64,000 bases of DNA from a virus (IMGVR_UViG_3300023202_000205:32001-96000), one strand, 5' to 3'; numbered from the stretch's first letter, positions 1 to 48,998 are shown. Program-made: numbers and translations. Notes: generated by a model not told the origin, from the letters alone.

Positions 1-569
1 AGTAGGTTACTAAAGGGCGCTCCATCATTTTGGTTGTCGACGTCAAGCATCGCCAACCGGATCTCTGGAATCAACAAGGGCCCACGGGTATTGGTATTCA
101 GTAAGCCTAAGGAAGTAGGTTCGACAGCCAACAGAACAGGCCACGTATCAATACGCCACCCGTCATTCTGAGAAGGCTGTTCCCCGTTCGGGATATACCG
201 CTCGACGTAAACCTCGTAGATGCCTGCCATAGGGACATCTTCCGTTCGCAGCTGAAACTCGGCAAAGCCACGATGCTCGATTTGATCGAGAATTTTGCCG
301 TCCACGTTCAGGTTAACGGGTCCTCCAAAGTCGGAGGCCGTCTGCTGGGTTCGCAAGCGCACCTGTACGTTAGATCCCTCAGCCTGCCGTTGAGGACTCC
401 AATCGGGGATCTCTGCGGGCGGGTTGGGTACCTCGTTCAACAAGTCGACGGGGGTACCACGATCGTCCGTCAATTTGAAGACAACAAGCTTGCGCGCCCC
501 CTGCGTTATGCGGACCAGTTTGATCATGCCGGGGTCGAATGCTGGGGATACCTCGATGGGGGAGATCAT
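1..569 (-). CDS. Probable neck / head-tail adaptor protein, partial (runs off left edge; absent from ORF track)
   Basis: Manual translation from ATG at 569 (ATGA overlap with the stop at 566-568) is open to base 1: MISPIEVSPAFDPGMIKLVRITQGARKLVVFKLTDD...GPLLIPEIRLAMLDVDNQNDGAPFSNL. The function call rests on position and on recalled similarity of the 'P..EIRL.M.D...N.L' segment to phage neck proteins. Confidence 0.55.
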   Translation of the reverse strand, partial: MISPIEVSPAFDPGMIKLVRITQGARKLVVFKLTDDRGTPVDLLNEVPNPPAEIPDWSPQRQAEGSNVQVRLRTQQTASDFGGPVNLNVDGKILDQIEHRGFAEFQLRTEDVPMAGIYEVYVERYIPNGEQPSQNDGWRIDTWPVLLAVEPTSLGLLNTNTRGPLLIPEIRLAMLDVDNQNDGAPFSNL

Positions 570-2425
570 ATCTGGCCCCCTCCGATTGCCCGAGAACCAA
601 GCGTACGCGCCCGGGGGCGGTACTGTTGGGAACCCTGCAACTGACGCGTGTTACGGCGTCCCATCGCCCGCCCCTGTGCCTTACGGATAAGGCCTTGTAG
701 ATCTTTTGGGCTAATCGGGCGAGAGTGCTGCCCACTACTATAGTCGCGCCCAGGTTGGAACACCGCTGGCGTACCCAGATAAGGTTTCCTACGTAAGTGA
801 GGGGGGAGCGCTCCATACCTGTTTTGTGGGAAGCGACTGGTCACTTGGCGGAGGTGTTTATCGCGAAGACCACCGCGATGCCCAGTCACGTTGAAGAACT
901 GAGCTCCTAACTTGTTTTGAGGCTGAGTAACTGTTGTCTTCGTTTTCGGCTGCTTCGGAGGCACCTTCGCAGCTGGCGAAGTACCTGGCGCGGTTGTGGG
1001 AGCCGATTGCGACTGAGGAGGCCTCACCGCTTCTTCAGTCGTCGGTGGCACATCACGAACCTGCTCAGGGGCTATCGGAGATGGGGGCGTCTTCGCAGCT
1101 GGCTGTTGTGCGCCCCCTATCTGTTGACGTGCCTGATTGTAAAGGTCCGTATAGTTGATTCCCTTTTGGAATCCACGGTCCTGCAACATCTGGCCAGCGA
1201 CCACATGTGCGTCCATCTTCTCACGGAAGTTGGGGTCCTGCTGCTCCATCTGAGCTACCCGGTTCTGAAACCATTCTGGGGGCTCCTCCCCCGTAGTTTG
1301 ATAGGAGCGGCGTAGTGAGGCCAGGTAACGGGGATCGTTGAGCCTCCGCTCTCTGCGAGCATCTCGTGCGTCGTAAGCAGCGGCCCGCTCTGGGTTGGCT
1401 TGTCGCCACAGGTCGATGCTCGACATTCGCTGCAACCCCTGCTCAGAGAGCGCGTGAGGCCGGCCTTGTCGGTCAAAGTACACCGGCCCCCCAGCTGCTG
1501 CCATAGCATCGTCAAGCCGAGTTAAGCCCAGACGCTGAGCGGCCTCCGAAGGACCTCCTAACTCCGCAGCCAACTGCTGTCGCCGGTTCTGCGCCCACTG
1601 AGCACGCCCCTCAGGATCCCTCGGAACTCCCGTTCCCGCACTCATCTCACGAATTAGTTGGCGCTCAATGTCCTGTTGCGCCTCAGCAGAGGCCTCCAAG
1701 TGAGGGACTCGAGTCAGACGCTTACCAGGCTCTCCAGTTTGAGACCATTTGAAGGTACGCCCCTCGGGGTCGATGTAGTAGTAGTTCCCAAAACGGTCGC
1801 GAGCGTTCAGGTTTTGATTGGGAATTGCGTCATACCCCGTGAACTGCGGCAACTCCTGCAGTGGAGCTGTTTCCAGGACCTCTCGGGCCATGTCCCGTGT
1901 TGCTTCCCTTTCTGGCCCCAGCACATCGTCGTCGACTGGAGGGGGTCTACGTACAGTGCGTTCCTGAACCCTCTTCATAGAGTCTTCAGCCGTAGAGGCA
2001 CTCGCCTCCTCGGGGGGAGGTTGTCCCACACTAGCTGCAGCCGCCTCCTCGGTAGCCGAAGGAGGAGTGGCCCCAGGGGACTCACTTTGCTCGGGGTCCT
2101 CAGCAGCCTCTTGTGTCACAGCTCCCATGGCTCCAGGGAGTGCCTGCGTAAGCTCGTCTGCTACTGGTAACTGCTGAATGCGCTCAGACATCCGAGACCG
2201 GATAGCGGGGTCCATAGCCGTAAAGCGACGCTTGGCCAACTCATCTATCCGAGGAGCCAGCTCAGGGTCCATCTGCCCAATCATATTGGGCAGACTACCT
2301 GCGAACTGCTGAAACTGCTTAGCAAGATCCTCATCTGGAGTGAGCGGAGCACCCTGGGCGTCAAAACCAATCAGATTGTTGACGAGCCAGGGTACTTCCG
2401 CAGCCAGCTTACCGAGTCGTCCCAT
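566..2425 (-). CDS. Putative internal head / ejected protein (Q/P/R-rich, K-x-A motif)
   Basis: 619-aa ORF starting MGRLGKLAAEV, nearly the same N-terminus as 21237-22358 (MMSRLGKLAAT). Low complexity, no enzyme motif. Confidence 0.6.
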   Translation of the reverse strand: MGRLGKLAAEVPWLVNNLIGFDAQGAPLTPDEDLAKQFQQFAGSLPNMIGQMDPELAPRIDELAKRRFTAMDPAIRSRMSERIQQLPVADELTQALPGAMGAVTQEAAEDPEQSESPGATPPSATEEAAAASVGQPPPEEASASTAEDSMKRVQERTVRRPPPVDDDVLGPEREATRDMAREVLETAPLQELPQFTGYDAIPNQNLNARDRFGNYYYIDPEGRTFKWSQTGEPGKRLTRVPHLEASAEAQQDIERQLIREMSAGTGVPRDPEGRAQWAQNRRQQLAAELGGPSEAAQRLGLTRLDDAMAAAGGPVYFDRQGRPHALSEQGLQRMSSIDLWRQANPERAAAYDARDARRERRLNDPRYLASLRRSYQTTGEEPPEWFQNRVAQMEQQDPNFREKMDAHVVAGQMLQDRGFQKGINYTDLYNQARQQIGGAQQPAAKTPPSPIAPEQVRDVPPTTEEAVRPPQSQSAPTTAPGTSPAAKVPPKQPKTKTTVTQPQNKLGAQFFNVTGHRGGLRDKHLRQVTSRFPQNRYGALPPHLRRKPYLGTPAVFQPGRDYSSGQHSRPISPKDLQGLIRKAQGRAMGRRNTRQLQGSQQYRPRARTLGSRAIGGGQI

Positions 2426-2426
2426 A

Positions 2427-3467: not shown

Positions 3468-3476
3468 TGACGGCTC

Positions 3477-3647: not shown

Positions 3648-3683
3648 AGCCACCAGCTTACTGGGGGCGCCCTCTACCGCAAT

Positions 3684-4508: not shown

Positions 4509-4554
4509 ACGTGCTCCCTACTGTCACAGATACCAAGCCTCTGAGCGGGCATAT

Positions 4555-7562: not shown

Positions 7563-9318
7563 ACCAGGCCCTCCAGGCTGTTCGGATCATGTCACCTAAG
7601 TATTGCCCGCAGGACTCCACATCGCATGCGGGTGATTTAAGGAAGTCCTCTCGAAGAGTACTCCGTAGATGTACTCGCCGCGCCTCATTACGTGCCAGTG
7701 AGACGGCTATCTCGCAGTAGTTTGTCTCATCCCGAGCAATGCCGTCCACCATGCCTAACGCGTTAAGGAAGCTCGCTGAATGGCGGCTAGCCTCAGTCTG
7801 TTTAGGCCAAGTCACTATAGGCAGCCCCATCCAAAGCGCCTCACAGGCTGTGGTACACCCACTGAAAGGCCAGGGATCGAGTACGACATCAATCTTGTTG
7901 TACGTGCTCAAAGACTCTGGAGGTGGGGTAAACCCCTCAAACATCAGCCGATCAGGGTCTATACCGAAGTCTCCCATTCGAGTAGTAATTCGATTACGCG
8001 TAAACTCCGACGCAAATGCAGCACTCTTCATCAATAGCCTGGATTCAGGTACATCTCTCAGAATAGCGGCCCATACCAACAGTACCCCGTCATTGAGTTT
8101 CGCACTATTTGAGAAGGTACCAAAGGTTACGTACCCATTCTCCTTGCTAGGGGCAGGCCCTACGGGTACATCGCCGAAGCCTGGCTGGAAACACTGGTGA
8201 GCGAAAGGCTCGGGAAATCGCAAGACCTGTTCGGAATACCACTGCTCGGTACCTTCTGGGATACTCATTGAACTACCGATTTTATAGTCGATTGCCTCAA
8301 GACCCGTGGTGCCCACGTACCCCAGCCACGTCATCTGAATAGGGGCTGGTTTCTGGGCAAACACCAGTAGGCGGTTACCCGACGTATGTCCGCTCAGATC
8401 AAAGAGCACATCGATTTTGTCCATGCGAACACAATCAAAGAGATCCTCCCCATGCAGCGAGCGAGCATCACGAAATTCTTCGGACACAGCCTCAAAGCGT
8501 TCGGTAACCTCGTCTTGCGCCCAATTGAGAGAATAGCAGTAGATAGCTAAGTCCTCCGGGAAGTGCTCAAGTACCCCCACGAGGAAATGCCCTACTGTGT
8601 GGTGCCGAAAGTCCTCAGAGACAAACCCCACTCGTAGCATCTTATCTGGGGCAGGGTCGTTGTCGTGAGCTGGCCAGCTACTCTTACGAGGCGCCCCGAA
8701 TCGTCGATCCCAGTCAATATGGAGGTCGTAGAGCCGAGACAGCGTGATACCGGGTACGAACTGATGGATGTAGCAGAGATTAGAGACGACCCCCTCGAGA
8801 TTTGGCTGAAGCTTGAGGGTCCGCTGATACATCTCGATGGCTGGCCCGATCAGGCCAGCCTCTTTGAGTGAGTTAGCAAAGCTATTACAGCCTGCTACGT
8901 TGGTTGGGTCGATCGTCAAGGCTCTTCGAAAAGCGGCGATAGCGTGTTCAAAGTAACCTGCCCTACTCAGGTAAAGGCCCGCGTTGATTAGCGCCTCTAC
9001 GTGGTCGGGGTTACATTTGATAGCTTCCTGGTGTGCTCGAAGCGCCTCCGTTAGCTGTCCAGCAGCCCCATAGAACATCCCCAGAGAGTACCACCCTCGG
9101 TCATCTTCCGGGTACAAACTGGTATAGCGTTCCGCTAGTTTGGTTGCCTCGGTGTTACGCCCCCATTTATGCTGGCTCAGTGCTAGTAGGTAAAGTGCCT
9201 TCTGGTGGTTGTGGTCTTTCCTCAGAACTTCCTGGAGCGTCTCGACACACTGTGCGAACTGACCCGCCTGGTACTGCTTGGCTGCAGCAGCGAGTTGGTT
9301 TTCCACGATTGTCGGCAT
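7534..9318 (-). CDS. TPR-containing GT41 glycosyltransferase (OGT/SPINDLY-like), copy 2
   Basis: TPRs, then LRVGFVSEDFRHHTVG, IDVLFDLSGHTSGNRLLVFAQKPAPIQMTWLGYVGTTG, VTFGTFSNSAKLN and IDVVLDPWPFSGCTTACEALWMGLP. Confidence 0.92.
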   Translation of the reverse strand: MPTIVENQLAAAAKQYQAGQFAQCVETLQEVLRKDHNHQKALYLLALSQHKWGRNTEATKLAERYTSLYPEDDRGWYSLGMFYGAAGQLTEALRAHQEAIKCNPDHVEALINAGLYLSRAGYFEHAIAAFRRALTIDPTNVAGCNSFANSLKEAGLIGPAIEMYQRTLKLQPNLEGVVSNLCYIHQFVPGITLSRLYDLHIDWDRRFGAPRKSSWPAHDNDPAPDKMLRVGFVSEDFRHHTVGHFLVGVLEHFPEDLAIYCYSLNWAQDEVTERFEAVSEEFRDARSLHGEDLFDCVRMDKIDVLFDLSGHTSGNRLLVFAQKPAPIQMTWLGYVGTTGLEAIDYKIGSSMSIPEGTEQWYSEQVLRFPEPFAHQCFQPGFGDVPVGPAPSKENGYVTFGTFSNSAKLNDGVLLVWAAILRDVPESRLLMKSAAFASEFTRNRITTRMGDFGIDPDRLMFEGFTPPPESLSTYNKIDVVLDPWPFSGCTTACEALWMGLPIVTWPKQTEASRHSASFLNALGMVDGIARDETNYCEIAVSLARNEARRVHLRSTLREDFLKSPACDVESCGQYLGDMIRTAWRAWCDKRSGLPA

Positions 9319-11047: not shown

Positions 11048-12064
11048 CTACGTTAAAAGCCAGGTGATCTTGCCCAGATCGTAACAGCGTTTGTACCCCA
11101 GGATTCTCGCCAACTCAAATTCCGTATGCTCATCGTTAAAAGCGATTCCTGCCTCTTCCGCCTCCCTATGTAGGTACTTCTTTTGCTTGGAATTCTTGGC
11201 GTACCAACGGCCATCCCGCCAGTAACGGTAATCAGGCCTGTTGAGACCCTGCTGGGTGAAGCCCAGGATTTCATAGAGGTTGCCGGAGGGCGCGTAACGC
11301 TCGTCAGAGTAACTCACTACGGGGCCTGGGTTCACTGAACGGAAGGCTGCCAGGAGTTTGGAAGCGCCACCAGGTATGACGTATTTCGTAGCGTATCGCT
11401 GGAGAAGACGATCACCGCTATCACCCCGACAAGCGCTGCCTTTGTTGAAGCTCATACAGGCAACTAGTTCCCGCTCATACACCAGCGCGAGATGGTCGGT
11501 GCCCGTGCAAGTCCCCTGCAGATGATACCTCTTGTAGAAGTCGTTAGCTTGCTCTCTGTCGATGACTTCAATAGAGCACTTACGTGCGTGTATCTTGTCT
11601 TCTCGAGCAGAGATGCGGTGATCGACCATGTTCTTAAGAGCCGGGCTATCCAGTTCGTCCTTCCACAGCAGAAGATGGTCATAGCCCAGCAAGTTGATGT
11701 GCCTACGGAACTGGACCAGCCAATTCACAGCTTGGGCGTGTGATTGGTTATAACGAGACATGATAGCCTCAACATGCCACTTCTCCGGATCTACCGCGAT
11801 GACTACCAAGCGGTCTTTTACGCCGAGTACCTCCGGCATATAAGGAAGCGGGATATCCCGAGGTGTCTTTGTAAGGCCAAGCCTTCTTGGAATGTTCTTC
11901 GGTCTCGCAGTCCGTACACGGTTACGCTTGAGCAGTTTGTAGATACCCATATTCGTCATACCGGCTTCTTCGGCCAAGACGCGTACGGGGGTTCCGTTTT
12001 CGTAGCGCGCGCAAACGCGCATTTCTTCTTTCGAGGCAAGCTTACGGGGTCTTGTTTGAAGCAT
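11048..12064 (-). CDS. Hef-like homing endonuclease with N-terminal HTH
   Basis: KIHARKCSI..I....ANDFY..YHLQG...LALVY..ELVACMSF...RYATK..IPGGASKLL.AF......VSYSD.RY..GNLY..LGF matches the Hef-like family as I recall it. Likely start ATG 12064. Confidence 0.75.
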   Translation of the reverse strand: MLQTRPRKLASKEEMRVCARYENGTPVRVLAEEAGMTNMGIYKLLKRNRVRTARPKNIPRRLGLTKTPRDIPLPYMPEVLGVKDRLVVIAVDPEKWHVEAIMSRYNQSHAQAVNWLVQFRRHINLLGYDHLLLWKDELDSPALKNMVDHRISAREDKIHARKCSIEVIDREQANDFYKRYHLQGTCTGTDHLALVYERELVACMSFNKGSACRGDSGDRLLQRYATKYVIPGGASKLLAAFRSVNPGPVVSYSDERYAPSGNLYEILGFTQQGLNRPDYRYWRDGRWYAKNSKQKKYLHREAEEAGIAFNDEHTEFELARILGYKRCYDLGKITWLLT

Positions 12065-12077
12065 GGGCTCTGCTTTC

Positions 12078-12458
12078 CTAAATGTGGCAACTCGTAGACG
12101 TTGCCAGTGATTGGGTTCCTGTTTCACCCAGGCCGGTATCGTCTTGGCATAAGCCAGGACCAGAGCCCGCCTGTCCACAGGCGTCGATTCCCCTGAAGCC
12201 CAAGGTACGAAGGTTTTGAGCGGCGTTGACATCGCGATCTTCGGTATGTCCGCAGTCACACTTGAAGGCTCGATCTGACCTGGAAAGTTTACCTCTTGGT
12301 ATTCTGTAGGTTTCTAAGAGTTTACTCTTCTTCAAATGATAAACTATAGCGCCCTCTGTTACCTGGTGTTTTTCAGCCAACTCCGCCCTGCTAACTCCCT
12401 CCTTATACAGCTTGCAGCTGTCTGCTATCTGATTTTTAGAAAGTTTATGTGACGTCAT
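12078..12458 (-). pseudogene. tnpB: HTH domain fused to the C-terminal fragment of an IS200/IS605 TnpB
   Basis: L...DRAFKCDCGHTEDRDVNAAQNL..LG.RG..ACG is the TnpB Zn-ribbon/RuvC-III tail. RuvC-I/II are absent and replaced by an HTH (MTSHKLS...GVSRAELAEKHQVTEGAIVYHLKK). Confidence 0.75.
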
Positions 12459-12491
12459 ACCACAACTATACAAAACAAAGCAGATGCACAA

Positions 12492-12553: not shown

Positions 12554-13492
12554 TTAGCTGGTACTGATACGAGCCTTCGCGATCGAAGCGGGGTTGCCGA
12601 TGGTGGCACCACGCTCAGTGTAAGCGAAGAACTCCAGGTTGTACGCTCTCTTATCCATGAAGAGGGTCACATCTTCCAGGATGAACGACTTGCCGATGAA
12701 CTCGGGCGAGGAGAACAACCAGAAGGTGTCATTCTCGACAAGCTCGGTCTTGCTGGTCACGACCCAATTCATTCCCAACAGCCGTTTCTGCTGGAAACCC
12801 TCGACGAACATGCTCTCGGAGAGGTCGCCACCAACCTCGTCGCGGCCGAACTTGGCCACGTCGTGGATGGTGATGTTGTTGACCAGGATGGTCACGCTCT
12901 CCAGATGAGCAAAGGTCTCGGGCAGGATCTTACGCATCTCGAAGAGCGAGTTGCGAGTGATACCGAGCGAGTCGATGATGTTCCGGTTCTGGATGACACC
13001 AGTCTCGGCCACGGTCGAACCTTCCGCACCAACGATCGTCTGCGCTGCAGCGATCATCTTGCGGTCGAACTCGAAGTCCATGTCGAGAATAGCGTTATCC
13101 GAGATCACCTGGCGGATGTCCATCCCGTAGGTTCGGAGCTCAGACACATCCTTGGTGAACTTCGGAGTGACGATCCGGTCGAAGAAGACCGGATAGCGAT
13201 CACCACGGAAGTAGTACTGGATGGGCTGAGTACCGAGCGGAATAGTGATAGCCGCCGGGCTAGCCGCTTCACGCTCGACGAGCTTGACGTTCTTGTCGGT
13301 GCCGAGCTGAGGTGTCAGCTCGTCATCGGCGAGCTTCACGCCAGGCAGCACCTTCTCGAACACCGAAGACTCGCGAATGCGAATTCGGGTGAAGTCGGTC
13401 ACCATGTCCTGGGCTTCCTTGACCTGCCCGGCATCGAGCAAGCCAAAGAAGGCCTTATTGGACTGGGCCGCACTGAGCTTCTGTTGAGTCAT
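12554..13492 (-). CDS. Major capsid protein (HK97 fold)
   Basis: About 312 aa from ATG 13492 (SD GAGG). It follows protease, scaffold and decoration genes and is followed by a terminator. Segments 'RIRESSVFEKVLP', 'IVTPKFTKDVSELRTY.MDIRQ' and 'FFAYTERGATIGN' fit an HK97-type MCP. Confidence 0.85.
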   Translation of the reverse strand: MTQQKLSAAQSNKAFFGLLDAGQVKEAQDMVTDFTRIRIRESSVFEKVLPGVKLADDELTPQLGTDKNVKLVEREAASPAAITIPLGTQPIQYYFRGDRYPVFFDRIVTPKFTKDVSELRTYGMDIRQVISDNAILDMDFEFDRKMIAAAQTIVGAEGSTVAETGVIQNRNIIDSLGITRNSLFEMRKILPETFAHLESVTILVNNITIHDVAKFGRDEVGGDLSESMFVEGFQQKRLLGMNWVVTSKTELVENDTFWLFSSPEFIGKSFILEDVTLFMDKRAYNLEFFAYTERGATIGNPASIAKARISTS

Positions 13493-13519
13493 TTTATTGG
13501 TTCCTCTCAAATCTCAGAA

Positions 13520-21165: not shown

Positions 21166-21236
21166 GCGACTAACCCTCACAAGGTTTCATGTGTAACTGA
21201 ATACGCAGGTTACGTGAAGAACACCCTCAGAGCAAC

Positions 21237-40857: not shown

Positions 40858-42747
40858 TCACATACCACCTTGGAGTAGCATCTGGCCGCCCTGGCTACGG
40901 GCTGACGATCGGATGTCCTCCATCCGCTGCATAACCAAGTCATGAAGGTCCTTATTACCCTCCCGAAGCGCCTTGAGCTCCTGCTTACGACTGAAATCGT
41001 CCATCGTCACAAGCTGCTGGGCAATCTGGTCAGCCTGGTCGGAGATAGCCGACAAAGACTGCGGAGTCTGGCTCTGCGGACCAGGCATACCCCCCATAGG
41101 AGCCCCACCCATACCTGCAGCCGCCGCTCCACCGGCAGCCATGGGATCCATCGGAGCCCCACCTCCAGCCCCGGCCATCATCTGTTGCTGCTGCATAGCT
41201 GACGGAGTTGGGTGCTGAGTCATCCCCTTGAGGACGCCCATCTCCTGCTGCTTCATAGCACGCTCGTCGTATTCCGATTGAATACGGGCCACATAGTCCT
41301 GATGGGACATGACCTTTTTGACCTCTTCGTGAGCGTCGATGCCGAACGGCTGCAGAGCGGTCTGAGGCGACAACTGGTTGGCCGACATGAGCTGCAAGAG
41401 CACTGCCTTACGTTCCATATCATCGGCAATAGTGGTCTTCTGCATCTGAACCTTGGTCCGGTCCAGGCCATACGCCCGCGACACCACATTGACGATCCAC
41501 TCGAGAACCCTGTTATAGAAGGCAGGAATAGCCTGCCAGTAAGCCTCAAACAGACGGAGCGACATAGGAGCTGCCTGGGTAGATAGGTTCATCTGATGGT
41601 ACTCAAGCGGGACACCCAGCTGGTTCAGGTATTCCTGGTGACGGAACTTCAGTTTTTCAGGTGGCAACAGTTTATCGCCTTCCCCTCCCAGGAACTGATA
41701 TTGCAGCGGGTAAGGACTCACGTGGTAGCTCGCCGGATTGTTCCGATGCTCATTCACGATGTTACGAACACGGCCGGAGAAGTTCTCCATACCAGTTGTC
41801 ACCATCGGGTCCTGTCCACCAGGGGTAGGTGTGGGACTTATGATCCTCATACCCAAGGTATAATCGATCGTAATCGCCTGATCCTGTTTGTTAGTTAGCT
41901 GCTGTAGCCACGCAGTACGGAAATTGGCGATGCTGCGAGGAATACCCCACCCTCGCGTACGCAGGCCTGAAATCTGCACCTCTGATTGATGAAGAATCAT
42001 GTCCTCATCGAACCGCAGACGCCCGTTGACGGCGACCGCTTCGAGCACCTCTAGCGGGGTGTCGTCAATGTGAATGCGGGACCTCCCCAGGATGTCCCGC
42101 CGCTCCTCCTCCGGAATCTTCCAGTAGAACTCTTTACGAAGACTAAAGCGATTCTGACTGATCTCGATGTCAGATGGGTCATACCTGTTTAGTTTGACCT
42201 TCGACAAATCGGGGTCCCGGCGATCGAAGACTTCGTAATTCGAACGGTCTCCACAGCGCGGGCATGCCGACTTACGATGCCACCTCAGATAAGGTGCTGC
42301 CGTGTGGAACTCCAGATTATAGCCGACCTCCGAAAGTGGCTGCTCCAGTTGACACCCTTCGCAACGAACAAAACGCTTGAATGGTAAGTAGATACTGACG
42401 AAGGAGTTACCATAACATAGGTAGTCGTAAGCGGGGCCAAGCAGCTCCCGGCGGTAGTCCATATGGTTACTAAACAGATCTTTGAAAGCCGATTCTTCAT
42501 CAGCCTGAAGATCAGGGAACTCCAACACCGTCATGAAATGACAGGCCACTCGCTCCATCGCAGTACGGTAGTTACCGTCTGAGATCCACATGTACTGGGA
42601 CCACCACATCACCAATTCGTGGTTGTCTGGTACCGCCACCGTAGAGTAATCCAGCCACGGAGTCATAAATGGTCGCTGGTTTGGCGACAAAGAGGTGCTA
42701 TTGGTTAGCGCTCGATTATCGGGAGTGGGGATAATTGAGTTAGGCAT
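40858..42747 (-). CDS. Portal protein with Zn-ribbon insertion
   Basis: DYLCYGNSFVS portal-type motif, RGWGIP, LGVP, CEGC...CPRC insertion and an M/G/P/Q-rich C-terminal tail; 629 aa at the head of the head-gene block. Confidence 0.8.
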   Translation of the reverse strand: MPNSIIPTPDNRALTNSTSLSPNQRPFMTPWLDYSTVAVPDNHELVMWWSQYMWISDGNYRTAMERVACHFMTVLEFPDLQADEESAFKDLFSNHMDYRRELLGPAYDYLCYGNSFVSIYLPFKRFVRCEGCQLEQPLSEVGYNLEFHTAAPYLRWHRKSACPRCGDRSNYEVFDRRDPDLSKVKLNRYDPSDIEISQNRFSLRKEFYWKIPEEERRDILGRSRIHIDDTPLEVLEAVAVNGRLRFDEDMILHQSEVQISGLRTRGWGIPRSIANFRTAWLQQLTNKQDQAITIDYTLGMRIISPTPTPGGQDPMVTTGMENFSGRVRNIVNEHRNNPASYHVSPYPLQYQFLGGEGDKLLPPEKLKFRHQEYLNQLGVPLEYHQMNLSTQAAPMSLRLFEAYWQAIPAFYNRVLEWIVNVVSRAYGLDRTKVQMQKTTIADDMERKAVLLQLMSANQLSPQTALQPFGIDAHEEVKKVMSHQDYVARIQSEYDERAMKQQEMGVLKGMTQHPTPSAMQQQQMMAGAGGGAPMDPMAAGGAAAAGMGGAPMGGMPGPQSQTPQSLSAISDQADQIAQQLVTMDDFSRKQELKALREGNKDLHDLVMQRMEDIRSSARSQGGQMLLQGGM

Positions 42748-42802: not shown

Positions 42803-43705
42803 TCAGTCGACCCGGACGAGAACAACTAACAACATCTCGTGACCATCGACTCGCATCTCAAAGGTAAACCCGTAGTATACACAGGGATACGTATTACCTT
42901 CGTGACTGACCGTCAAGCAGTCAGAGGGCTCCTGCGATATAGGGGGCTCAACAATCACCGCATCGTCGTCATCGACGTATCCCAGGACAACGAGCTGGTC
43001 CGAGATAGCAAGCTTGTTCACTCGTAGCCGGTGGCGGCCCATCCGCTCCGACTCCATGATAATCTTGATACGCTCAGCAGACGGGGACGTGGAACTTGCC
43101 ACCCGCAGCCCATTGAGTGCTGCCATACCAGATCCACCAGTAGTCGCCGCAACCGTTTGTGCCATCTCCGGCCCCGGCATAGCTGGTGTAACGTCTGTAG
43201 GAGGCGCCTTCTCCGGCTCTGGGGCAACCTCCTCGTGAGCGGTCTTGGCTTCCTGTCCCTGGACGTTGACAGGGGTTTCCGCGTCGAGATGAGCCGATGA
43301 ACGGCGAACAGGCTGCACCCCCACCCCGTGCTCTGCGGCAGTCTTCGGCGCTGGGGGGCGAACTGTAATGCCCATCGCCTCGACCCCCATTTCCAAAGAA
43401 GCGTCCTTGTGAAGCACGCCCTGAGGGGCCTGAGCAGCATTCTCCGGGTTGACTATGGAGCTCATAGCACAATTGCGGACACCCTCTTCGCGAGATACCG
43501 TCCCATCATCGTTGACAGTCACTTGGTCCACCCGGATATCGGACAGATCACCCTCCCGCGAGGCTACGGAGGCCCCAGAAGGGAGCCGCAGCTCCGTCTG
43601 ATCTTCTCCGGGGGATACGTGTTCCGCCCGGGCCAGGCCGCTAAGTCGGTTAGGGTGGTCCTTGCAGTAATGAATCCCTGCAAAACCTAGATTGCCTTCA
43701 TCCAT
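42803..43705 (-). CDS. Hypothetical protein with P/A-rich linker and small C-terminal beta domain
   Basis: 300-aa ORF directly upstream of the portal, with its own promoter. Confidence 0.6.
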   Translation of the reverse strand: MDEGNLGFAGIHYCKDHPNRLSGLARAEHVSPGEDQTELRLPSGASVASREGDLSDIRVDQVTVNDDGTVSREEGVRNCAMSSIVNPENAAQAPQGVLHKDASLEMGVEAMGITVRPPAPKTAAEHGVGVQPVRRSSAHLDAETPVNVQGQEAKTAHEEVAPEPEKAPPTDVTPAMPGPEMAQTVAATTGGSGMAALNGLRVASSTSPSAERIKIIMESERMGRHRLRVNKLAISDQLVVLGYVDDDDAVIVEPPISQEPSDCLTVSHEGNTYPCVYYGFTFEMRVDGHEMLLVVLVRVD

Positions 43706-43739: not shown

Positions 43740-43742
43740 GGG

Positions 43743-44540
43743 CTAGGAGATCGTAGACAACGCAGACGCTAACAGGTTGTCCCAGTTGACTTGGGCGTCG
43801 ACTGCATGGACGTCATCAATATCCAAAAACGGTGTAAAATCGGCAGCTTTCTCCATGTCAGGCACCTCTGACGTTAGAATCCAGTTGGCGCGACTCTGAT
43901 AAGGGATGCCCATGTGAAGCGGCGCTGCTTTGAGAATCTCAGCTACCTGCCTTCCTTTACGCTCGAGTGTATCCGCTACTGACCTCATGGATGGTCCGTG
44001 AAACCGATCGATGACGTTGACGTACATATGCCGGCAGCGCTCACACATCGTACCAAGGTAGCCCTCAAGGATCTCATTCCCCCCGTCATAAGCATCGGCA
44101 CACCCGAAGTCCCACTCATCAAAATGATCCTCGTAGAACCGTGCGGCGTCCTCTATAACGATGTTGAGTCTTCCCTCATCCATGTAGTGGACCAGGAGGG
44201 GGTAGTTATCCAACGCCACTTGGACCATTACCGGGTCAATCTCGATAATCGTCAGATCCACCCGAGGAAAGTTGTAAAGCAGCTGCACAGCGCCGGACCC
44301 GCTCCCGAGACCCACCATGGAGGCTGTAGCGCTTGGGTTCATAACGGCACCCAACATCCACCCGAGTGGGTAGATGGAGCTGGATATCGGCCCAGGAGCT
44401 CCGTATGGAAGTGACTCGTGAACGATGGCTGCTGAAGGCCTTAGGTAAGAAGCCCCCTGCTGTTGTCCATTCAGGAGCAGGATCCGTTGCTGGCCATGGT
44501 CTACGACCTCGATAACACCGAAACGTCCTTTACGCTGCAT
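43743..44540 (-). CDS. Spermidine-synthase-like SAM-dependent transferase
   Basis: Motif I MVGLGSGSG, motif II IIEIDPVMV.VA, IEDA, DAYDG, and N-terminal 'I.VVD....R.L.LNG..QG'. Confidence 0.75.
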   Translation of the reverse strand: MQRKGRFGVIEVVDHGQQRILLLNGQQQGASYLRPSAAIVHESLPYGAPGPISSSIYPLGWMLGAVMNPSATASMVGLGSGSGAVQLLYNFPRVDLTIIEIDPVMVQVALDNYPLLVHYMDEGRLNIVIEDAARFYEDHFDEWDFGCADAYDGGNEILEGYLGTMCERCRHMYVNVIDRFHGPSMRSVADTLERKGRQVAEILKAAPLHMGIPYQSRANWILTSEVPDMEKAADFTPFLDIDDVHAVDAQVNWDNLLASALSTIS

Positions 44541-47538
44541 CGACCGGAGCCCTCACCGCGTCCTCTTGCTCCTTCTTCTTACGCTTGAGATAACGAACAA
44601 GTGCCCTGGCCCGCGCACGATCCAACTGCCGGTAAGGCTTATTAGTCGCAAGCCCCATACTGGCATAGAAGTCCGTCAAAGCCTCCGTCGGGTCTACTGC
44701 CTCAAACCCCTCAGGTACCTGAGGAGTTTCCCCAACACGAAGACCAACACGGTATCCATGGAAACCCTCATCTGGAATACCCGATTCAGGCACAAAAGGT
44801 ATCTCCGACTCATAAGGAGCAGGCTTACCTGGTCCTTCCGTAGGCAGTGCAAAACGCCGCTGCGGCAACCTCCGAACAACCACCTTCCCCTCTGGCGTCA
44901 GAAGTATGTGCTGCTGCAGCGGTTTGAACTGCGCGACATCAGCAGTCTTATGTTGATCCACGCCCCCCGTACTCGCCCGATCCTTTTGGTCGAGCGTAGC
45001 CTGGACAGGTTGTTGCTGGGCAAACTCGATCTGCTCAGTGGCTTCTGGAGTATCGTCGAAGACTTCCGACTGTACGTCCTGAGAAGAATCCCTGCTCCGC
45101 AGGTGCGTATTCCCACCAAGATCAGGGTCAAGCTGCCCGGGAGACGGAATAAGCGCTGCCCTCTTTAGAATAGCCGAATAGTCGAGCCCCGTCTTCGTAG
45201 CAGCACCGGCGTTTGCCGCCAGTTGTTGCTGCTCATTCTCCGTAGGGCCAATCACGCCAGGGGCTGGCTGATTCATAGCTGTACCGGGGGCCTCCGTCTT
45301 TACCGGGAGTGCTGGGTTTTGCGCCCCATTGTCCAGCTCAGCAAGAATCTCTTCCTCATCCTCCGTATCGGGAATGGTCGCGATCTCGTCGTCATCCGCA
45401 GCTCCCGTACCAATCGTCTGGTCAGGGATCTCAGCGGCGGTCACCTGCATACCTGGTTGGGGTTGCTGCAAAGGCTGGGAAGGCATCTGAGGAGGAGCCG
45501 CATGCTGGGCCATGGGAGGTTGGCCGGTAGCCTGCTGACCCTGCTGTCCCTGCATCAACTGCCTGACAAAATTCTGAGCAACGAATTCAGGATCACCTTC
45601 CTCCAATCGCTGCTGAGAAGGGAGGGGCACCTGCTGACCACCTTGAGCAGGTGGTTGCTGGGCTGGCATACCCGCTTGGTCAGCAGGCGGCTGGTCTGCG
45701 CCCTCCGGAGGAGGAGGCGGAGGGGCAAAAGCCGCACTCTGCGCCTGCTTGGCTGCTGCATATTTGTTGTATGCCAACTCAACCCTCTGAAGCACCTCGA
45801 TAGGGGGCTCCATCGCGTGCTCAGTATAGGTGTCCGCCAGCTTGACTGCTCGGGAAAGCTCAGACAGGAGCTCCTCCGAGGCATGTTTGAACTTGCCTGC
45901 ATCCTCAATATCCCCGACCTGCGTATGCTTCTGCTCTACCTTATGAGCTGAAGTAAGACCATCGGCAGTACGAGCACTACCTGGAGCAGTCTTAGGCTTC
46001 TCGGTAGCAACGGCGTGTATATCGGTGTTAATCTGATCCGTCCAGGTCCCTCTCTGACCGCTACTATAGTCCGTTTCATAATCGTCATGACGCACCTGCT
46101 CCCCATAAGCAGAACCAGCTTGTTTAACCGGTTTGAGAGAAGACTTCACTTTGGCTAGCCGCTTAGCGTTGGCTACGAGCTGGCGGCGCTCCTCGTTATT
46201 GCGCTTTGCCCACCCCTGATCCTCTCGGTCGATCAACTCCTTTAAGCGGGAGAGGACCTTATCGAACGGCATCAACTCGAAGTCTTCCTGGTCGTCGTGA
46301 GTGATGCCTGCCTCACCAGCATCTACCCCGAAAAAGAAGTACGTGCGCTCTCCATCGAAATCTGAGTTATCCCAGAACTCGTTGCCACTATCCTTTGGCC
46401 ACACGGCCTCAACTGTACCAGCGTTGTAAACATTGATAGGGTGGCGGTTCGACTCTTCGATCGTCTCACGAATGGCGGCGTCTCGAGGCTGCTCGCCATC
46501 ATCGACACCCCCACCTGGAAACAGGAGATAGTCGCCTTTATCAATTGCGTAAACCCCACCCGTGTTGAATAGAATCATCTCCGACCGAGGCCGTAGCTTG
46601 TTCTCAGGAGCGGAATCGTGGTGATCAACGAGAGGCTCCCGCTCTTCACCAGCTGTTTTCCCCTGCTCAGAACCTCGCCAAAGACGGCACCAGTGCTCCG
46701 GCTGGATCTCGCCCCGTACCTGTGAGCAGATGTACTTGCCACTCACCACTTTCTGAAAGGCGAACTTGCAACTACCGCACTTCTGCTCCCCTCGGGGCTC
46801 CTTTTTGTAGGTTGCCAGCTCTTTGGACATCTTGTAATTAGGCGTTCCCGACCCGAGCAGGTAGTAGAGCAGTGGAGTCTCCCGCTGCTCCTCTTCCGGC
46901 AATTTGTGGAACCGCTCGATAGCCTGCTGTACCCCTGGAGGGGCATCTTTACCTGCTCCTGGGTAGTGGGTCAGGTTACCGTGCTCATCCTCACCTCTAC
47001 GCTCCAAAAGCCTCTGATACATCCCCTTGATGTCTGCAGACTCCGCCGCCAACTTACCATTCTCGATCAATTGGTCCTGCTCAATCTGGCGAAGCGCCAG
47101 CTTGATCTGCGCCTCTTCAATCCACTCACTAATTTTGTGGAAGCCAACAGGCATACCCGAAGAGTAGCGGTCCACCTTTTCAATGTACTTCATGAGATTA
47201 GCGTTACTCGGACGGGCTGGGTTACCACCAGTAGGGGTCGTATAGAAAGGTTCGTTTCTCTTGGGGGAAAGATCCTGCTCGTCTTTCACACCAGCCTCCT
47301 TGGTCACAGCCTCCAGCGCCTCTATAGCTGCTTCTACATCTCGTCGTGTCCGGGCTTTGGTAGCCTCGACTACTTCAGAGATCGCGCTTACAGGTAGGTC
47401 TGCTACCCGCTGAGCAAGCGTTTTGTTCTTTTTGCGAGTAGGGCGCTTGGCATCAGGTACGCGTTTATACGACTTCCGTGAGCCGATGACGTCACGCAGT
47501 CTCTTACCCAAGCTCGAGGTAAACTGTGGCTGATTCAA
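44530..47538 (-). CDS. Multidomain internal polyprotein: HiPIP-like Cys4 domain, Nudix hydrolase and degenerate second Nudix
   Basis: CGSC...C..VRGEIQPEHWCRLW (about 46680-46810) and Nudix box GGGVDDGEQPRDAAIRETIEES (about 46446-46516), with about 15 K-x-A motifs. Confidence 0.75.
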   Translation of the reverse strand: MNQPQFTSSLGKRLRDVIGSRKSYKRVPDAKRPTRKKNKTLAQRVADLPVSAISEVVEATKARTRRDVEAAIEALEAVTKEAGVKDEQDLSPKRNEPFYTTPTGGNPARPSNANLMKYIEKVDRYSSGMPVGFHKISEWIEEAQIKLALRQIEQDQLIENGKLAAESADIKGMYQRLLERRGEDEHGNLTHYPGAGKDAPPGVQQAIERFHKLPEEEQRETPLLYYLLGSGTPNYKMSKELATYKKEPRGEQKCGSCKFAFQKVVSGKYICSQVRGEIQPEHWCRLWRGSEQGKTAGEEREPLVDHHDSAPENKLRPRSEMILFNTGGVYAIDKGDYLLFPGGGVDDGEQPRDAAIRETIEESNRHPINVYNAGTVEAVWPKDSGNEFWDNSDFDGERTYFFFGVDAGEAGITHDDQEDFELMPFDKVLSRLKELIDREDQGWAKRNNEERRQLVANAKRLAKVKSSLKPVKQAGSAYGEQVRHDDYETDYSSGQRGTWTDQINTDIHAVATEKPKTAPGSARTADGLTSAHKVEQKHTQVGDIEDAGKFKHASEELLSELSRAVKLADTYTEHAMEPPIEVLQRVELAYNKYAAAKQAQSAAFAPPPPPPEGADQPPADQAGMPAQQPPAQGGQQVPLPSQQRLEEGDPEFVAQNFVRQLMQGQQGQQATGQPPMAQHAAPPQMPSQPLQQPQPGMQVTAAEIPDQTIGTGAADDDEIATIPDTEDEEEILAELDNGAQNPALPVKTEAPGTAMNQPAPGVIGPTENEQQQLAANAGAATKTGLDYSAILKRAALIPSPGQLDPDLGGNTHLRSRDSSQDVQSEVFDDTPEATEQIEFAQQQPVQATLDQKDRASTGGVDQHKTADVAQFKPLQQHILLTPEGKVVVRRLPQRRFALPTEGPGKPAPYESEIPFVPESGIPDEGFHGYRVGLRVGETPQVPEGFEAVDPTEALTDFYASMGLATNKPYRQLDRARARALVRYLKRKKKEQEDAVRAPVDAA

Positions 47539-48998
47539 ACCACGTACCTTTCTTCCGGTTCATCACTCGTAAGCAGATTTTTGAGTAGTGCAGCACCCAG
47601 GCCCACTCCCCCACCGATGAGGGCTCCCTTACCAAAGCGCGGTTTGAACTCCCGCCACATAGACGGGCTACTCCCAGGGAGATAGGCGTCCTGTGCTTCC
47701 TGCATCCGTCGAGCAGCGGTGGAAGGTTCCATTTCGGTCGCCTGGAAGTTACGCCCCAGCTGTCCCAGAAGAGCACGCCTGTCTGGCTCAACCGCCTGGT
47801 AGGACTGGTTACCCTGATAAGCCCCGTAACCACCATACCCTAAGCCACCCGCCCCAGCACCACCTAGGGTGTACAGCAGGATGTCAGCCATACTGCCACG
47901 CTTCTCTTCTGAGGCCGTCTTCTTCATGTCCTCAGGCAGGAAAAGCTCTGCGGGGTTGAGTGCGGAGGCGAACTTGGGGCGGTAGACCTCTTGGTCGTCT
48001 TGCTCAGGACGGCCCTTTTCACGAGCCCGATTGAGCAGCCGGTAAAGTGCATATAACCCGACTCCGCCCAAAGCAGCACCGCCGCCCCACTTGGCTACGT
48101 CTCCCCACGGAACGGAACTTCCAAAGTCTACGCCACCACGGACGTTAATAGGAAGCCCCTTCTCGGAGATGTTTTTAAGAGCTTGAGCTCCTGCCCCCGT
48201 CCCTTCTCGAACGTTCTTGATGGCTCCCTTCGCCTCCGAAGTAACGTCACCAAGGCCCTTGGTGCCCTCCTCCAAATTGCTGAGAACCTTGTTCAGATTC
48301 TCTGCCGTGCGGTCAGCTTCGCTTACACCAAGCGCAAGACCACCCAACCCGACTTTGGACCCAAGACCACCAGTCATAGCCCAGGTAGCACGGTTCGAGG
48401 CTCTCGGTCCGAGAATCGCCTCGATGCGGGAAAGATCGTCCATACTGGAGATCTCGATGGGAGGGCCGCCCTTTTGCGGAAGAGTATATGTCCCCGGTGC
48501 CTCTCCCATGTTCCACACGGGGTCGTCGAACTTCCCCTTGCGAGCGGTACGTAGAGCCTTGCCAGGATCACCACCCATGTACTGGTGACGAAGCCCACGC
48601 GTGCCCGAGAGCGCACCAAGCAGGCCAAGTGTCGCCGCACTCTCTGGGCTCTCTGGATCAAGTGCATAGCCAGTACCGGCACCCGCAGCTCCACCACCGG
48701 CTACCCAAGGTACGTCACGTACCATGCCTCGGAGAGCTGGGCCGACAGCCGCCCGCTTCTTGAGGCTCTTTTTGACCGCCTGCCCATTCTTCACATCCAT
48801 CAAACCGGCTCCCTCGAGTTTCTCGTAATAGTTGGGGTCTTCCTGGAGGTGCTCTTCAGCGATCTGCTCCGCCTCTGCTGAATCAGATGTGTGCTCAAGT
48901 TCCTCTTCGGAACCGAGCTCGCGCTCCTTCTCGATCGGCCATTTTCCCTCTCGAGCGGCCTTAGAAAGGATGCGTTCCACCGTTTCAGCAGGGGTCAT
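47535..48998 (-). CDS. Internal protein with N-terminal DUF5661-like domain and glycine zippers
   Basis: ELEHTSDSAEAEQIAEEHLQEDPNYYEKL matches the DUF5661 pattern as I recall it; several GGAA.GA zippers follow KRAA, KFAS and KTAS. Confidence 0.7.
   Translation of the reverse strand: MTPAETVERILSKAAREGKWPIEKERELGSEEELEHTSDSAEAEQIAEEHLQEDPNYYEKLEGAGLMDVKNGQAVKKSLKKRAAVGPALRGMVRDVPWVAGGGAAGAGTGYALDPESPESAATLGLLGALSGTRGLRHQYMGGDPGKALRTARKGKFDDPVWNMGEAPGTYTLPQKGGPPIEISSMDDLSRIEAILGPRASNRATWAMTGGLGSKVGLGGLALGVSEADRTAENLNKVLSNLEEGTKGLGDVTSEAKGAIKNVREGTGAGAQALKNISEKGLPINVRGGVDFGSSVPWGDVAKWGGGAALGGVGLYALYRLLNRAREKGRPEQDDQEVYRPKFASALNPAELFLPEDMKKTASEEKRGSMADILLYTLGGAGAGGLGYGGYGAYQGNQSYQAVEPDRRALLGQLGRNFQATEMEPSTAARRMQEAQDAYLPGSSPSMWREFKPRFGKGALIGGGVGLGAALLKNLLTSDEPEERYVV

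Follow-up and report, generated by a model that had tools for sequence, protein, structure and literature searches.

The head-module proteins of an uncultured 179-kb phage carry a short gapped motif, Lys-x-Ala (K-x-A), which is enriched, specific in form, conserved, distributed across the clade, and placed at protein N-termini and module boundaries. The motif is real and not an effect of amino acid composition. We propose, with a probability of roughly 0.75 and on the strength of sequence comparison and analogy, that K-x-A is what the phage's prohead serine protease, the product of 16302-17600, recognises and cuts. If this is true, the capsid-maturation proteases, a familiar class of enzyme, would gain Lys-x-Ala as a new specificity, and the system would be a further version of the scheme used by T4, phiKZ, and herpesviruses. 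The analysis was conducted on a 64,000-nucleotide stretch of the phage genome (the window, to which coordinates refer unless genome positions are given), with a comparison set of about 80 relatives.

In the window, 146 K-x-A occurrences were found versus about 96 expected from composition-matched shuffles (global and in 30-aa blocks); the local 30-aa shuffles, which preserve composition, gave p ≤0.003. The enrichment suspected in an earlier note on this DNA therefore survives correction for Lys and Ala content. An unbiased scan of ca. 1,600 gapped residue pairs revealed K-x-A as the top pair in the 14-49 kb part of the window (z=6.0), while in window proteins outside the head module it was not among the top 15. 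It was likewise the highest-ranked pair for the head modules of Salmonella phage Arash (z=5.4) and Vibrio phage D69 (z=6.3), and was not within the top 10 in all-protein scans of either phage. Among related metagenomic loci with a GC content of 31-69%, K-x-A ranked first of the ca. 1,600 pairs in 57 of 80, although loci within a clade share phylogeny and these are not 57 independent observations. As a positive control, an identical scan of T4 gp67, gp68, gp21, and gp22 returned I-x-E first and L-x-E second, i.e., recovered the established P3-x-P1 motif (I/L-x-E) of gp21. The phiKZ-like S80 pairs A-x-E, S-x-E, and G-x-E were missing from the top 15 of the head region.

The signal is narrowly defined. 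In a spacing test, K.A was observed 96 times versus 32 expected; KA, K..A to K......A, and every A-K spacing matched expectation. The residue-substitution controls R.A, K.S, and K.G were not enriched, and L.K.A was found 27 times versus 2.8 expected. A DNA pattern for K-x-A occurred 93 times in the coding frame versus 3-14 times in other frames, and Lys codon usage was unchanged, as expected of a protein-level and not a DNA-level signal. Across 1,993 unique sites, information was limited to positions -2 to +4, Pro and Gly were depleted around the core, and position +3 favoured Ser or Ala. The motif can be written more fully as [F/L/M/I]-x-K-x-A-[S/A/G/E] and, at its fullest, as [F/L/M/I]-[E/T/V]-K-x-A-[S/A/G/E]. 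The surrounding contexts are not repeats, and the profile has the look of a protease substrate profile.

The excess is carried by about ten proteins: two scaffold-like proteins, the protease, two neighbouring and two cargo proteins, and three encoded outside the window. They are given below with observed versus expected counts from shuffles (each p≤0.005), followed by two RNA polymerase (RNAP) proteins, recognised by Pfam RNAP domains, that served as within-module negative controls.

14352-14792, minus strand: scaffold-like Ala/Lys/Gln-rich protein (by enrichment and position), 146 aa, 10 sites versus 3.2 (p<0.0005)
14823-16253, minus strand: second scaffold/core-like protein (by enrichment and conservation), 476 aa, 15 sites versus 6.1
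16302-17600, minus strand: predicted prohead (head maturation) serine protease (by phrog_18299 match and enrichment), 432 aa, 9 sites versus 3.3
18796-20181, minus strand: head protein upstream of the protease (by enrichment and conservation), 461 aa, 10 sites versus 2.6
22355-24619, minus strand: virion protein (by a weak C-terminal match to Arash gp218), 754 aa, 8 sites in two clusters versus 2.5
42803-43705, minus strand: 300-aa protein, 4 sites in its low-complexity middle versus 0.7 (p=0.004)
44530-47538, minus strand: modular cargo protein (by enrichment, NUDIX domain PF00293, and homology blocks), 1002 aa, 15 sites versus 6.4
Genome 8146-9096, outside the window: 13 sites versus 2.3
Genome 177740-178714, outside the window: 9 sites versus 3.2
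Genome 122290-122691, outside the window: 3 sites versus 0.35
24681-26579, minus strand: RNAP beta'-C, 4 sites versus 2.9, not enriched
29913-34379, minus strand: RNAP beta::beta'-N, 6 sites versus 10.1, not enriched

The hand counts of the earlier note agree with ours (44530-47538 has 61 Lys and 15 K-x-A, the RNAP fusion about 112 Lys and 6 K-x-A). All of the sites it cited are present in the genes named: GKLAA in 566-2425 and 21237-22358, KQAA in 14352, KKASASKTAA in 14823, KHAS in 16302, KFAE in 17597, KAAE in 18796, RKLAA in the small ORF at 20971-21180, KFAQ in 26800, KQAF in 28577, KQAQ in 36432, KLAQ in 37708 (at residue 55 of the longest ORF), and KAAR in 47535. Its figure of about 20 marked proteins is too high. 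Some 10-12 have statistical or comparative support, while 566, 26800, 28577, 36432, 37708, and 47535 have no more than one or two sites, all N-terminal, for which comparative support is slight or lacking. A site lies in the first 40 aa of 10 of 23 head-module proteins versus 4.7 expected (p=0.0075), and the rest of the genome has no such excess; N-terminal recurrence is thus borne out, though its extension to most head-module ORFs was an overstatement. N-terminal sites were also in excess in D69 and across the 80 loci (532 versus 241 expected), and in Arash the difference was not significant (8 versus 4.9, p=0.10).

Site positions are conserved in homologues, a check that the earlier note had proposed. 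Lys and Ala were jointly kept at 66% of sites, versus 22% expected from other Lys and Ala residues in the same proteins, and three sites are invariant in orthologues of just 20-25% identity. Where the Ala of a conserved site is substituted, it is mostly by Gly or Ser. Orthologues of 14352 with 45-47% identity retain 9-10 sites, and 13 of the 15 sites of 14823 are kept in the relative L018 (48% identity); the syntenic proteins directly downstream of the protease in Arash and D69 are likewise enriched, without a BLAST match to 14823. The sites of 18796 are confined to residues 16-316, leaving the C-terminal 145 aa free of them; 7 or 8 of the 10 are kept in L018 and in a second relative, L019, and enrichment is also seen in the proteins at the syntenic position upstream of the protease, gp220 in Arash and its counterpart in D69. 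Members of the 22355 family have a mean of 11 sites, which in 27 members occupy the same two segments; the AF2 model of 22355 gave no fold match. Arash gp218 is abundant in virions, according to a virion mass spectrometry study that reports coverage and counts (PMC10585845). No homologues of 42803 were found within the fetched set. Conserved sites were also seen, mostly as single N-terminal copies, in further head-module proteins:

12554-13510, minus strand: major capsid protein (MCP; by match to the annotated Arash MCP, gp226), 318 aa
13409-13426, minus strand: near-N-terminal MCP site Q-V-K31-E-A33-Q (MCP homologue alignment), present in 57 of 58 homologues (98%)
17597-18793, minus strand: 398-aa protein, one N-terminal site M-R-K19-F-A-E (18728-18745), with K-x-A at residues 19-22 retained in the L018 and L019 counterparts (26% identity to L019; the L018 counterpart is syntenic without a BLAST match)
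20971-21180, minus strand: small ORF, 69 aa, site Q-R-K-L-A-A, ORF and site both conserved in L018
21237-22358, minus strand: 373-aa protein, site L-G-K7-L-A-A, with K-x-A in the first 16 residues of its positional counterparts in L018 and L019
47535-48998, minus strand: 487-aa protein, five Gly-rich 'zipper' segments, 6 sites versus 3.4 expected (p=0.11, not enriched), a candidate substrate in which 4 of 5 alignable sites are kept in a single homologue (61% identity) whose homology begins at the K81 site

The product of 16302-17600 matches phrog_18299, 'head maturation protease' (E=2.7e-11), and a tblastn search returned annotated capsid or head maturation proteases of Gordonia and Erwinia phages. 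Its catalytic core spans about residues 44-222. Four residues, H100, S151, D203, and D212, are invariant in 65 homologues, among them (S151 and H100) the Ser and His expected of a gp21-, gp175-, or assemblin-type protease. A Pfam search gave no match even at E≤10, nor did a sequence search of the PDB. The hhalign alignment with T4 gp21 is non-significant (E=0.33); in it, S151 falls on gp21 position 140 and H100 within three residues of gp21 His85, which we take to be the gp21 catalytic residues. The nearest named Atlas clusters by language-model neighbourhood are Peptidase_S77 (S77/S80 score 0.91-0.92, S78 0.90-0.91), and the Atlas model itself is of low confidence (pLDDT 0.54). A tentative link to gp21 is drawn from the PHROG name, the non-significant hhalign match, and the language-model neighbours. 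The genes lie in the order protease, 14823-16253 and 14352-14792 (scaffold-like), 13520-14299, and MCP, all on the minus strand, and an identical protease - scaffold - MCP order is found in Arash and D69. Conserved K-x-A sites occupy both flanks of the catalytic core:

17490-17507, minus strand: N-terminal site L-C-K34-H-A36-S (homologue alignment), Lys in 65/65 and Ala in 64/65 homologues, in all subclades
16932-16949, minus strand: site directly past the core, L218-K-K220-V-A222-A (homologue alignment); nearly all homologues have hydrophobic-x-K-x-A-[S/A/G] a few residues past the PADR motif, in one of two registers

K-x-A thus takes the form of a short P3-x-P1 motif enriched both in scaffold/core proteins and at the termini of the protease itself.

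The cargo protein 44530-47538 has sites placed at domain boundaries, which the earlier note had described and which our mapping upholds. Four of its sites mark boundaries:

47290-47307, minus strand: K80
46648-46665, minus strand: K294
46114-46131, minus strand: K472
44938-44955, minus strand: K864

The NUDIX domain (PF00293) covers about residues 298-475, and K294 and K864 are the first residues, and A474 the last, of homology blocks common to 25 relatives. The Nudix cassette starts with K-x-A-G and ends with K-Q-A in 21 of 26 homologues with unrelated flanks, and relatives pair it with other enzyme modules. BLAST blocks start within 5 aa of a K-x-A site in 54% of cases versus 16% at random, and for 5 of the 15 sites an AF2 domain/linker edge is no more than 2 aa away (p=0.008). 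Sites 146, 566, 592, 597, and 905 fall inside confidently folded helices or domains, and chance accounts for about a third of K-x-A occurrences; not every K-x-A, therefore, can be cut.

Could the motif have no function, and reflect no more than chance, internal repeats, or helices rich in Ala and Lys? The densest proteins are indeed rich in both residues (14352 contains 22.6% Ala and 9.6% Lys), yet the excess persists in local shuffles that keep composition, is limited to the i,i+2 spacing in the K-to-A direction, arises in non-repeated contexts, recurs in relatives of widely differing GC content, and falls at conserved positions; we consider this reading barely tenable. A modification directed at Lys (attachment of a ubiquitin-like protein, acylation, methylation, or a capsid cross-link) would suit a Lys-centred motif with a hydrophobic residue upstream, loosely resembling a SUMO consensus. 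It is very improbable, since Arash and D69, both of which keep the motif, lack counterparts of the Ubl/E1/E2 genes, and since the strict Ala at +2, replaced by Gly or Ser, the small residue at +3, and the placement at domain junctions fit a protease better.

A non-proteolytic role in binding or targeting, as a contact with the capsid interior or scaffold or as a procapsid packaging signal, appears unlikely, though conservation and enrichment alone do not separate binding from cutting. The motif is confined to head-module proteins and often N-terminal, like the capsid-targeting sequence that T4 has at the N-terminus, and because the T4 targeting leader ends in a cleavage motif, the two roles need not exclude each other. 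On the other hand, 10-15 copies along scaffold-like proteins are hard to explain as a targeting signal, a packaging signal fits the internal multi-copy distribution less well, sites coincide exactly with the junctions of shuffled modules and lie to either side of the protease core, and the T4 control demonstrates that such scans pick out a cleavage motif. Cleavage by a host enzyme has a precedent in staphylococcal phage 80alpha, where capsid and scaffold proteins alike undergo processing by a protease of the host, and here the motif is tied to the phage protease by co-occurrence only. However, the motif is common to Salmonella and Vibrio phages and to contigs of 31-69% GC, and probably reaches gp95 of actinobacteriophage Bxz1, so that a single host protease conserved across phyla would be needed; the motif also goes along with the phage protease family and flanks the catalytic core of its members on both sides, and we regard a host enzyme as highly unlikely. 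A protease site is the best explanation: copies of the motif lie on either side of the protease's own core, and applied to T4 the scan finds the gp21 motif.

From these observations we infer proteolysis, the bond that is cut, and what becomes of the products. The cut would probably fall after Ala (P3 = Lys, P1 = Ala, P1' = a small residue) and less probably after Lys: the T4 control yields an enriched pair of the P3-x-P1 type, the +3 preference for Ser or Ala resembles the P1' Ser of SPN3US gp245 and herpesvirus assemblin, and the Ala of conserved sites is swapped mostly for Gly or Ser. In a scheme modelled on T4 gp21 and phiKZ gp175/SPN3US gp245, the protease would be built into the procapsid core with scaffold-like and cargo proteins and, once the shell is closed, would trim itself at the conserved sites on either side of its catalytic core. 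It would then chop 14352, 14823, the N-terminal two-thirds of 18796, and the product of genome 8146-9096 into peptides of ca. 5-100 aa able to exit the shell (computed fragments of 14352 cut at all sites are 5-30 aa). About 33 residues would be removed from the MCP N-terminus, short N-terminal leaders would be taken off several other head proteins, and the cargo protein would be cut at module boundaries, so that products including an RppH-like Nudix enzyme would be set free within the head. The earlier note's protease-processed polyprotein is supported as to the protease site; most dense sites, however, belong to scaffold-like proteins, whose expected fate is degradation and not conversion into effectors, and the injection of products and the membrane segments we can only infer.

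T4 gp21 (MEROPS S77) cuts L/I-x-E sites in gp22, gp67, gp68, gp23, gp24, IPI-III, and Alt, and is itself trimmed on both flanks of its catalytic core. The proposed system resembles it in the protease gene that adjoins scaffold/core genes just upstream of the MCP gene, in a short gapped P3-x-P1 motif with many copies in scaffold/core proteins, in the proposed removal of N-terminal leaders from the MCP and internal proteins and self-trimming of the protease, in the recovery of both motifs by one scan, and in S77 as the nearest named Atlas clusters. It differs in the motif residues (Lys and Ala versus Leu/Ile and Glu), in having no significant sequence match to gp21 or PF03420, in a protease twice as long with a C-terminal extension of ca. 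200 aa, and in having among its candidate substrates a 1002-aa multi-enzyme protein whose sites fall at module junctions. Herpesvirus assemblin (MEROPS S21) recognises (V/L/I)-x-A followed by Ser, with a P1' Ser preference. At the level of consensus motifs, the likeness, if the cut falls after Ala, lies in P1 = Ala and P1' = Ser/Ala and in a release site directly at the end of the protease domain, while P3 here is Lys, not hydrophobic, and the hydrophobic preference is at P5. Viral polyproteins cut themselves at short linker motifs, e.g., picornavirus 3C sites; here, too, a common short motif delimits enzyme modules, so that one ORF could yield several products, although the proposed cutter is a capsid-maturation protease that would act within the closed capsid of a DNA phage.

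For the proteases of phiKZ (gp175) and SPN3US (gp245; both MEROPS S80), whose targets are head, inner-body, and ejection proteins, the cut follows S/A/G-x-E; SPN3US gp245 trims itself on both flanks of its core, with C-terminal self-cleavage, and prefers Ser at P1' (PMC10052503). Their substrates are reported to lose N-terminal propeptides, and not to be cut internally between enzyme cassettes (PMC10052503), and the A-x-E, S-x-E, and G-x-E pairs are outside the top enriched pairs here. Shared with these phages are several motif copies inside long propeptides, a C-terminal self-cleavage of the protease (here proposed) with a small residue after the cut, a large genome, and a virion-packaged multisubunit RNAP, which, unlike that of phiKZ, consists of a beta::beta'-N fusion and beta'-C.

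The window spans bases 32001-96000 of the 179,364-bp genome of an uncultured phage. The genes of the window are nearly all on the minus strand. Those to which the argument refers are:

12554-13510, minus strand: major capsid protein (MCP), matching the annotated MCP of phage Arash
16302-17600, minus strand: head maturation protease (phrog_18299, E=2.7e-11, residues 71-217)
24681-26579, minus strand: multisubunit RNA polymerase (RNAP), beta'-C; one gene of a two-gene arrangement
29913-34379, minus strand: multisubunit RNAP, beta::beta'-N fusion; the other gene of the arrangement

The gene at 40858-42747 probably encodes the portal, judging by homology to Arash gp204. Among cultured phages, the closest are Vibrio phages D69, D148, and D181 and Salmonella phage Arash; their proteases share 37-38% identity with that of 16302-17600. 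In the Arash virion, the RNAP beta subunit was the protein detected most (PMC10585845).

An earlier note had proposed that the tripeptide K-x-A marks head proteins of this phage. All sites it cited were found in the sequence, and its hand counts were correct. Comparison with composition-matched shuffles (2,000 per protein, either global or inside 30-aa blocks) confirmed the enrichment, with 146 K-x-A in the window versus about 96 expected. The excess was confined to seven window proteins: scaffold-like proteins 14352 (146 aa) and 14823 (476 aa), the protease (16302), head protein 18796, the 754-aa protein 22355, the 300-aa protein 42803, and the 1002-aa Nudix cargo protein 44530. Genome-wide (212 ORFs), three further enriched proteins, all outside the window, and almost none besides were observed; the RNAP subunits showed no enrichment in the shuffle test. 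When all residue pairs at gaps 0-3 were scanned in the 14-49 kb region, K-x-A was the top pair (z=6.0) and L-x-K was second; both were missing from the same scan outside this region. In the enriched set, K-x-A occurred 96 times (32 expected), all other spacings and orders of K and A were as expected, R-x-A, K-x-S, and K-x-G were not enriched, and L-x-K-x-A was found 27 times against 2.8 expected.

A DNA-level cause, i.e., a nucleotide motif AARNNNGCN, was rejected, since the pattern is enriched in the coding frame alone; Lys codon choice is unaltered. Helix periodicity or composition was likewise rejected by the spacing test and the local shuffles. Since the spacing, pair, shuffle, and frame tests agree, we conclude that K-x-A is a protein-level, spacing-specific motif. 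A role as a target of Ubl conjugation was also considered and rejected, as Arash and D69 are without Ubl, E1, or E2 genes.

A pair scan of the genes around the protease placed K-x-A at the top in both Arash (z=5.4) and D69 (z=6.3). The enriched proteins of these phages are positional counterparts of those in the window, including the protease neighbours on both sides and, in D69, the protease itself; a distal protein of about 290 aa, the counterpart of a 316-aa protein at genome positions 8146-9096, is also enriched. The scaffold-like proteins of Arash include gp223 and gp225. A search for relatives with a single protease sequence gave no matches; an alignment that also contained the proteases of Arash and D69 led to 286 relatives in IMG/VR, from which 80 loci were retrieved. 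Genes in these loci were called on the protease strand only, which gave the same motif ranking as six-frame calling. Of about 1,600 pairs, K-x-A was the leading one at 57 of the 80 loci and one of the three leading ones at 67, across a GC content of 31-69%. When T4 gp67, gp68, gp21, and gp22 were scanned as a positive control, I-x-E came first and L-x-E second. I/L-x-E is the experimentally established gp21 motif, and its recovery indicates that the scan method works. Overall enrichment is weak in subclades L035/36, L053/56, L088/92/95, and L089, yet their proteases keep the N-terminal K-x-A, and we therefore do not claim a specificity switch there.

Mycobacteriophage Bxz1 gp95 (1370 aa; L101 8911-13023) has an N-terminal domain that is a distant homologue of the protease, and K-x-A is its top pair (19 versus 8.3 expected). 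Residues 42-47 of the Bxz1 MCP read K-Q-A-K-L-A. The domain homology and site count of gp95 suggest a protease-scaffold-cargo fusion, which may process itself at the same motif.

A site profile was built from 1,993 unique sites of 259 enriched proteins. Information is restricted to positions -2 to +4, the outer flanks being flat. Position -2 is [F/L/M/I] and position -1 is [E/T/V/I]; Lys at position 0 is followed by [Q/T/V/L] at +1 (G/P/D depleted), Ala at +2, [S/A/E/G] at +3 (I/P/V depleted), and [F/D/A/E] at +4 (R/K/N depleted).

Conservation of motif positions in homologues, which the earlier note had proposed as a test, was also observed. Both K and A were retained at 66% of sites; the retention rates of the remaining Lys (39%) and Ala (56%) in these proteins predict 22%. 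The enriched proteins are fast-evolving (41-62% identity to those of related metagenomic loci L018 and L019, versus 90% to L018 for the MCP), and the distal 316-aa protein has three invariant K-x-A despite 20-25% identity to its Arash and D69 orthologues. A search with the MCP gave 72 matches in the relatives' proteins; K31-E-A33 is present in 57 of the 58 distinct homologues left after filtering. In the Arash MCP (gp226), the site reads L-V-K27-E-A29, with G-A-A-M-S-A-F-V-R directly behind it. A site falls within the first 40 aa in 10 of 23 head-module proteins (4.7 expected, p=0.0075), with no excess of such sites in the rest of the genome. The corresponding numbers are 12 versus 5.3 in D69, 532 versus 241 in the 80 loci, and 8 versus 4.9 in Arash, the last not significant. 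N-terminal sites are retained in counterparts of head-module proteins 17597, 21237, 18796, and 14823, and of the small ORF 20971-21180. Two otherwise unrelated minus-strand genes, 566-2425 and 21237-22358, encode a near-identical leader, M-x-R-L-G-K-L-A-A, which could be a common N-terminal targeting-plus-cleavage leader.

In the protease, K34-x-A36 is found in 64 of 65 homologues, and nearly all homologues carry a second site, hydrophobic-x-K-x-A-[S/A/G], after the last conserved core motif (PADR). The SPN3US protease gp245 cuts off its own C-terminal propeptide (PMC10052503). Searches of Pfam and PDB with the protease sequence gave no match, and no significant similarity to T4 gp21 emerged with hhalign; membership in the prohead protease family is supported by the PHROG match, invariant Ser and His residues, gene order, and Atlas neighbours. 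The Atlas structural neighbours include clusters with LAGLIDADG/Hint domains. The protease of one close relative (L019:10001-11905) is 634 aa long owing to an intein in the catalytic domain (PF14890 Intein_splicing, E=7e-11, best stretch residues 254-355).

The T4 gp21 scheme comprises self-trimming, leader removal, and sites in scaffold/core proteins. Because the pattern described here agrees point for point with T4 gp21 and with phiKZ gp175/SPN3US gp245 (a motif of the P3-x-P1 type, its frequent repetition in scaffold/core proteins and propeptides and, as we propose for this phage, removal of N-terminal leaders and self-trimming of the protease), K-x-A is read as the predicted cleavage motif of protease 16302-17600, with a probability of roughly 75%. 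Were all sites cut, scaffold-like protein 14352 would be reduced to pieces of 5-30 aa and 14823 to pieces of 4-123 aa, while 18796 (461 aa) would leave a 145-aa C-terminal piece. A subset of the sites falls within folded elements and probably goes uncut.

As to the scissile bond, cleavage after Lys would, as in T4, make the P3 residue hydrophobic; we consider this the less probable arrangement. Cleavage after Ala is favoured because the pair that came up in the T4 control is P3-x-P1, because the small residue behind Ala resembles Ser at P1' in SPN3US and assemblin, because substitutions of Ala are mostly Gly or Ser, and because a strict P2' Ala beside an unspecific P1' would be unusual. For SPN3US, the P1' Ser is that of protease gp245 (PMC10052503).

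The 25 homologues of the 1002-aa cargo protein 44530-47538 have a common Nudix core (40-70% identity), similar to RppH and Ap4A hydrolases, and differing neighbours: LigD_N, DNA/RNA ligase, HAD, DUF5661, and a weak HiPIP match. The boundaries of the common block coincide exactly with K-x-A-G-E-E-R-E-P at its start and K-P-x-K-Q-A at its end; in one homologue, an adjoining module (residues about 476-553, with K-H-A at its end) is found upstream of Nudix. BLAST blocks started at K294 seven times and at K864 five times and ended at A474 nine times, and 54% of block starts were within 5 aa of a site, compared to 16% at random. In the AF2 model (mean pLDDT 62), the Nudix and C-terminal domains exceed 90 and the linker is low-confidence. 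The earlier note's placement of sites at domain boundaries held in this model, with K80, K197, K294, K472, and K864 no more than 2 residues from a domain/linker transition (5 of 15 sites, p=0.008). The most unusual feature of the system is that the cargo is built of cassettes joined at the motif. The motif suggests exchange of enzyme cassettes at protease sites in the cargo proteins. More tentatively, the protease may also be a polyprotein processor: K-x-A-delimited cassettes (RppH-like Nudix, DNA/RNA ligase, LigD 3'-phosphoesterase, HAD/PNK-type phosphatase, HiPIP-like domain, and DUF5661), shuffled in evolution at their junctions, would be freed in the head and enter the host with the virion RNAP as an RNA-end-modifying toolkit.

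Homologues P0002, P0003, P0016, and P0019 contain LigD 3'-phosphoesterase, ATP-dependent DNA/RNA ligase, HAD/PNK-type phosphatase, and weak HiPIP (E=5e-4, below the cut-off) matches; together, these enzymes resemble a set for repairing or modifying RNA/DNA ends, placed in head-module proteins. DUF5661 (PF18905) matches residues 29-62 of glycine-zipper protein 47535-48998, at its N-terminus, and in relatives lies inside Nudix cargo proteins (P0009, P0011, P0014, P0017, and P0018); on these sequence matches, it appears to be another module moving between head proteins.

To our knowledge, prohead-protease motifs are known by experiment for few phages only (T4, the phiKZ/SPN3US group, and HK97-like phages). 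The papers searched did not describe a prohead-protease motif of the K-x-A type, and contained nothing usable on Arash processing data or Bxz1 capsid N-termini. Such motifs make a head proteome readable in terms of scaffolds, mature protein starts, and packed and ejected proteins; here, one was derived purely from sequence, for a large lineage of 150-230-kb phages that carry a virion RNAP and are nearly all uncultured. About a dozen "hypothetical" window proteins are thereby annotated as candidate protease substrates, testable predictions follow for two cultured relatives (Arash and Vibrio phage D69), and other phage groups could be examined in the same way, by looking for the highest-ranking gapped residue pair in the genes that surround a prohead protease.

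Among other candidate substrates, the AF2 model of the 754-aa protein (22355-24619) gave no fold match. K-x-A is not significantly enriched in 47535-48998 (p=0.11); relative to its single homologue, 4 of 5 alignable sites are kept, and homology begins at the K81 site. Gly-rich, "glycine-zipper"-like segments (G/A/L runs, e.g., GGGAAGAGTGY) are present in 47535-48998, 34385-35341, and 35722-36435 (all minus strand), and a Kyte-Doolittle scan revealed no classical hydrophobic transmembrane stretch in these three proteins, which are possibly membrane-active ejection proteins. The products of processing may be injected or insert into membranes.

The MCP (12554-13510) is 90% identical to L018:14059-14997, while identity falls to 47-60% for the adjoining protease, scaffold-like, and other head proteins, which reflects either very uneven constraints or recent exchange of the capsid gene. 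Shortly downstream of the MCP gene, with the small ORF 12078-12491 between, lies an HNH/homing-endonuclease-like gene (11048-12259, minus strand; phrog_3339, E=8e-46) with an N-terminal HTH; most relatives are without a counterpart.
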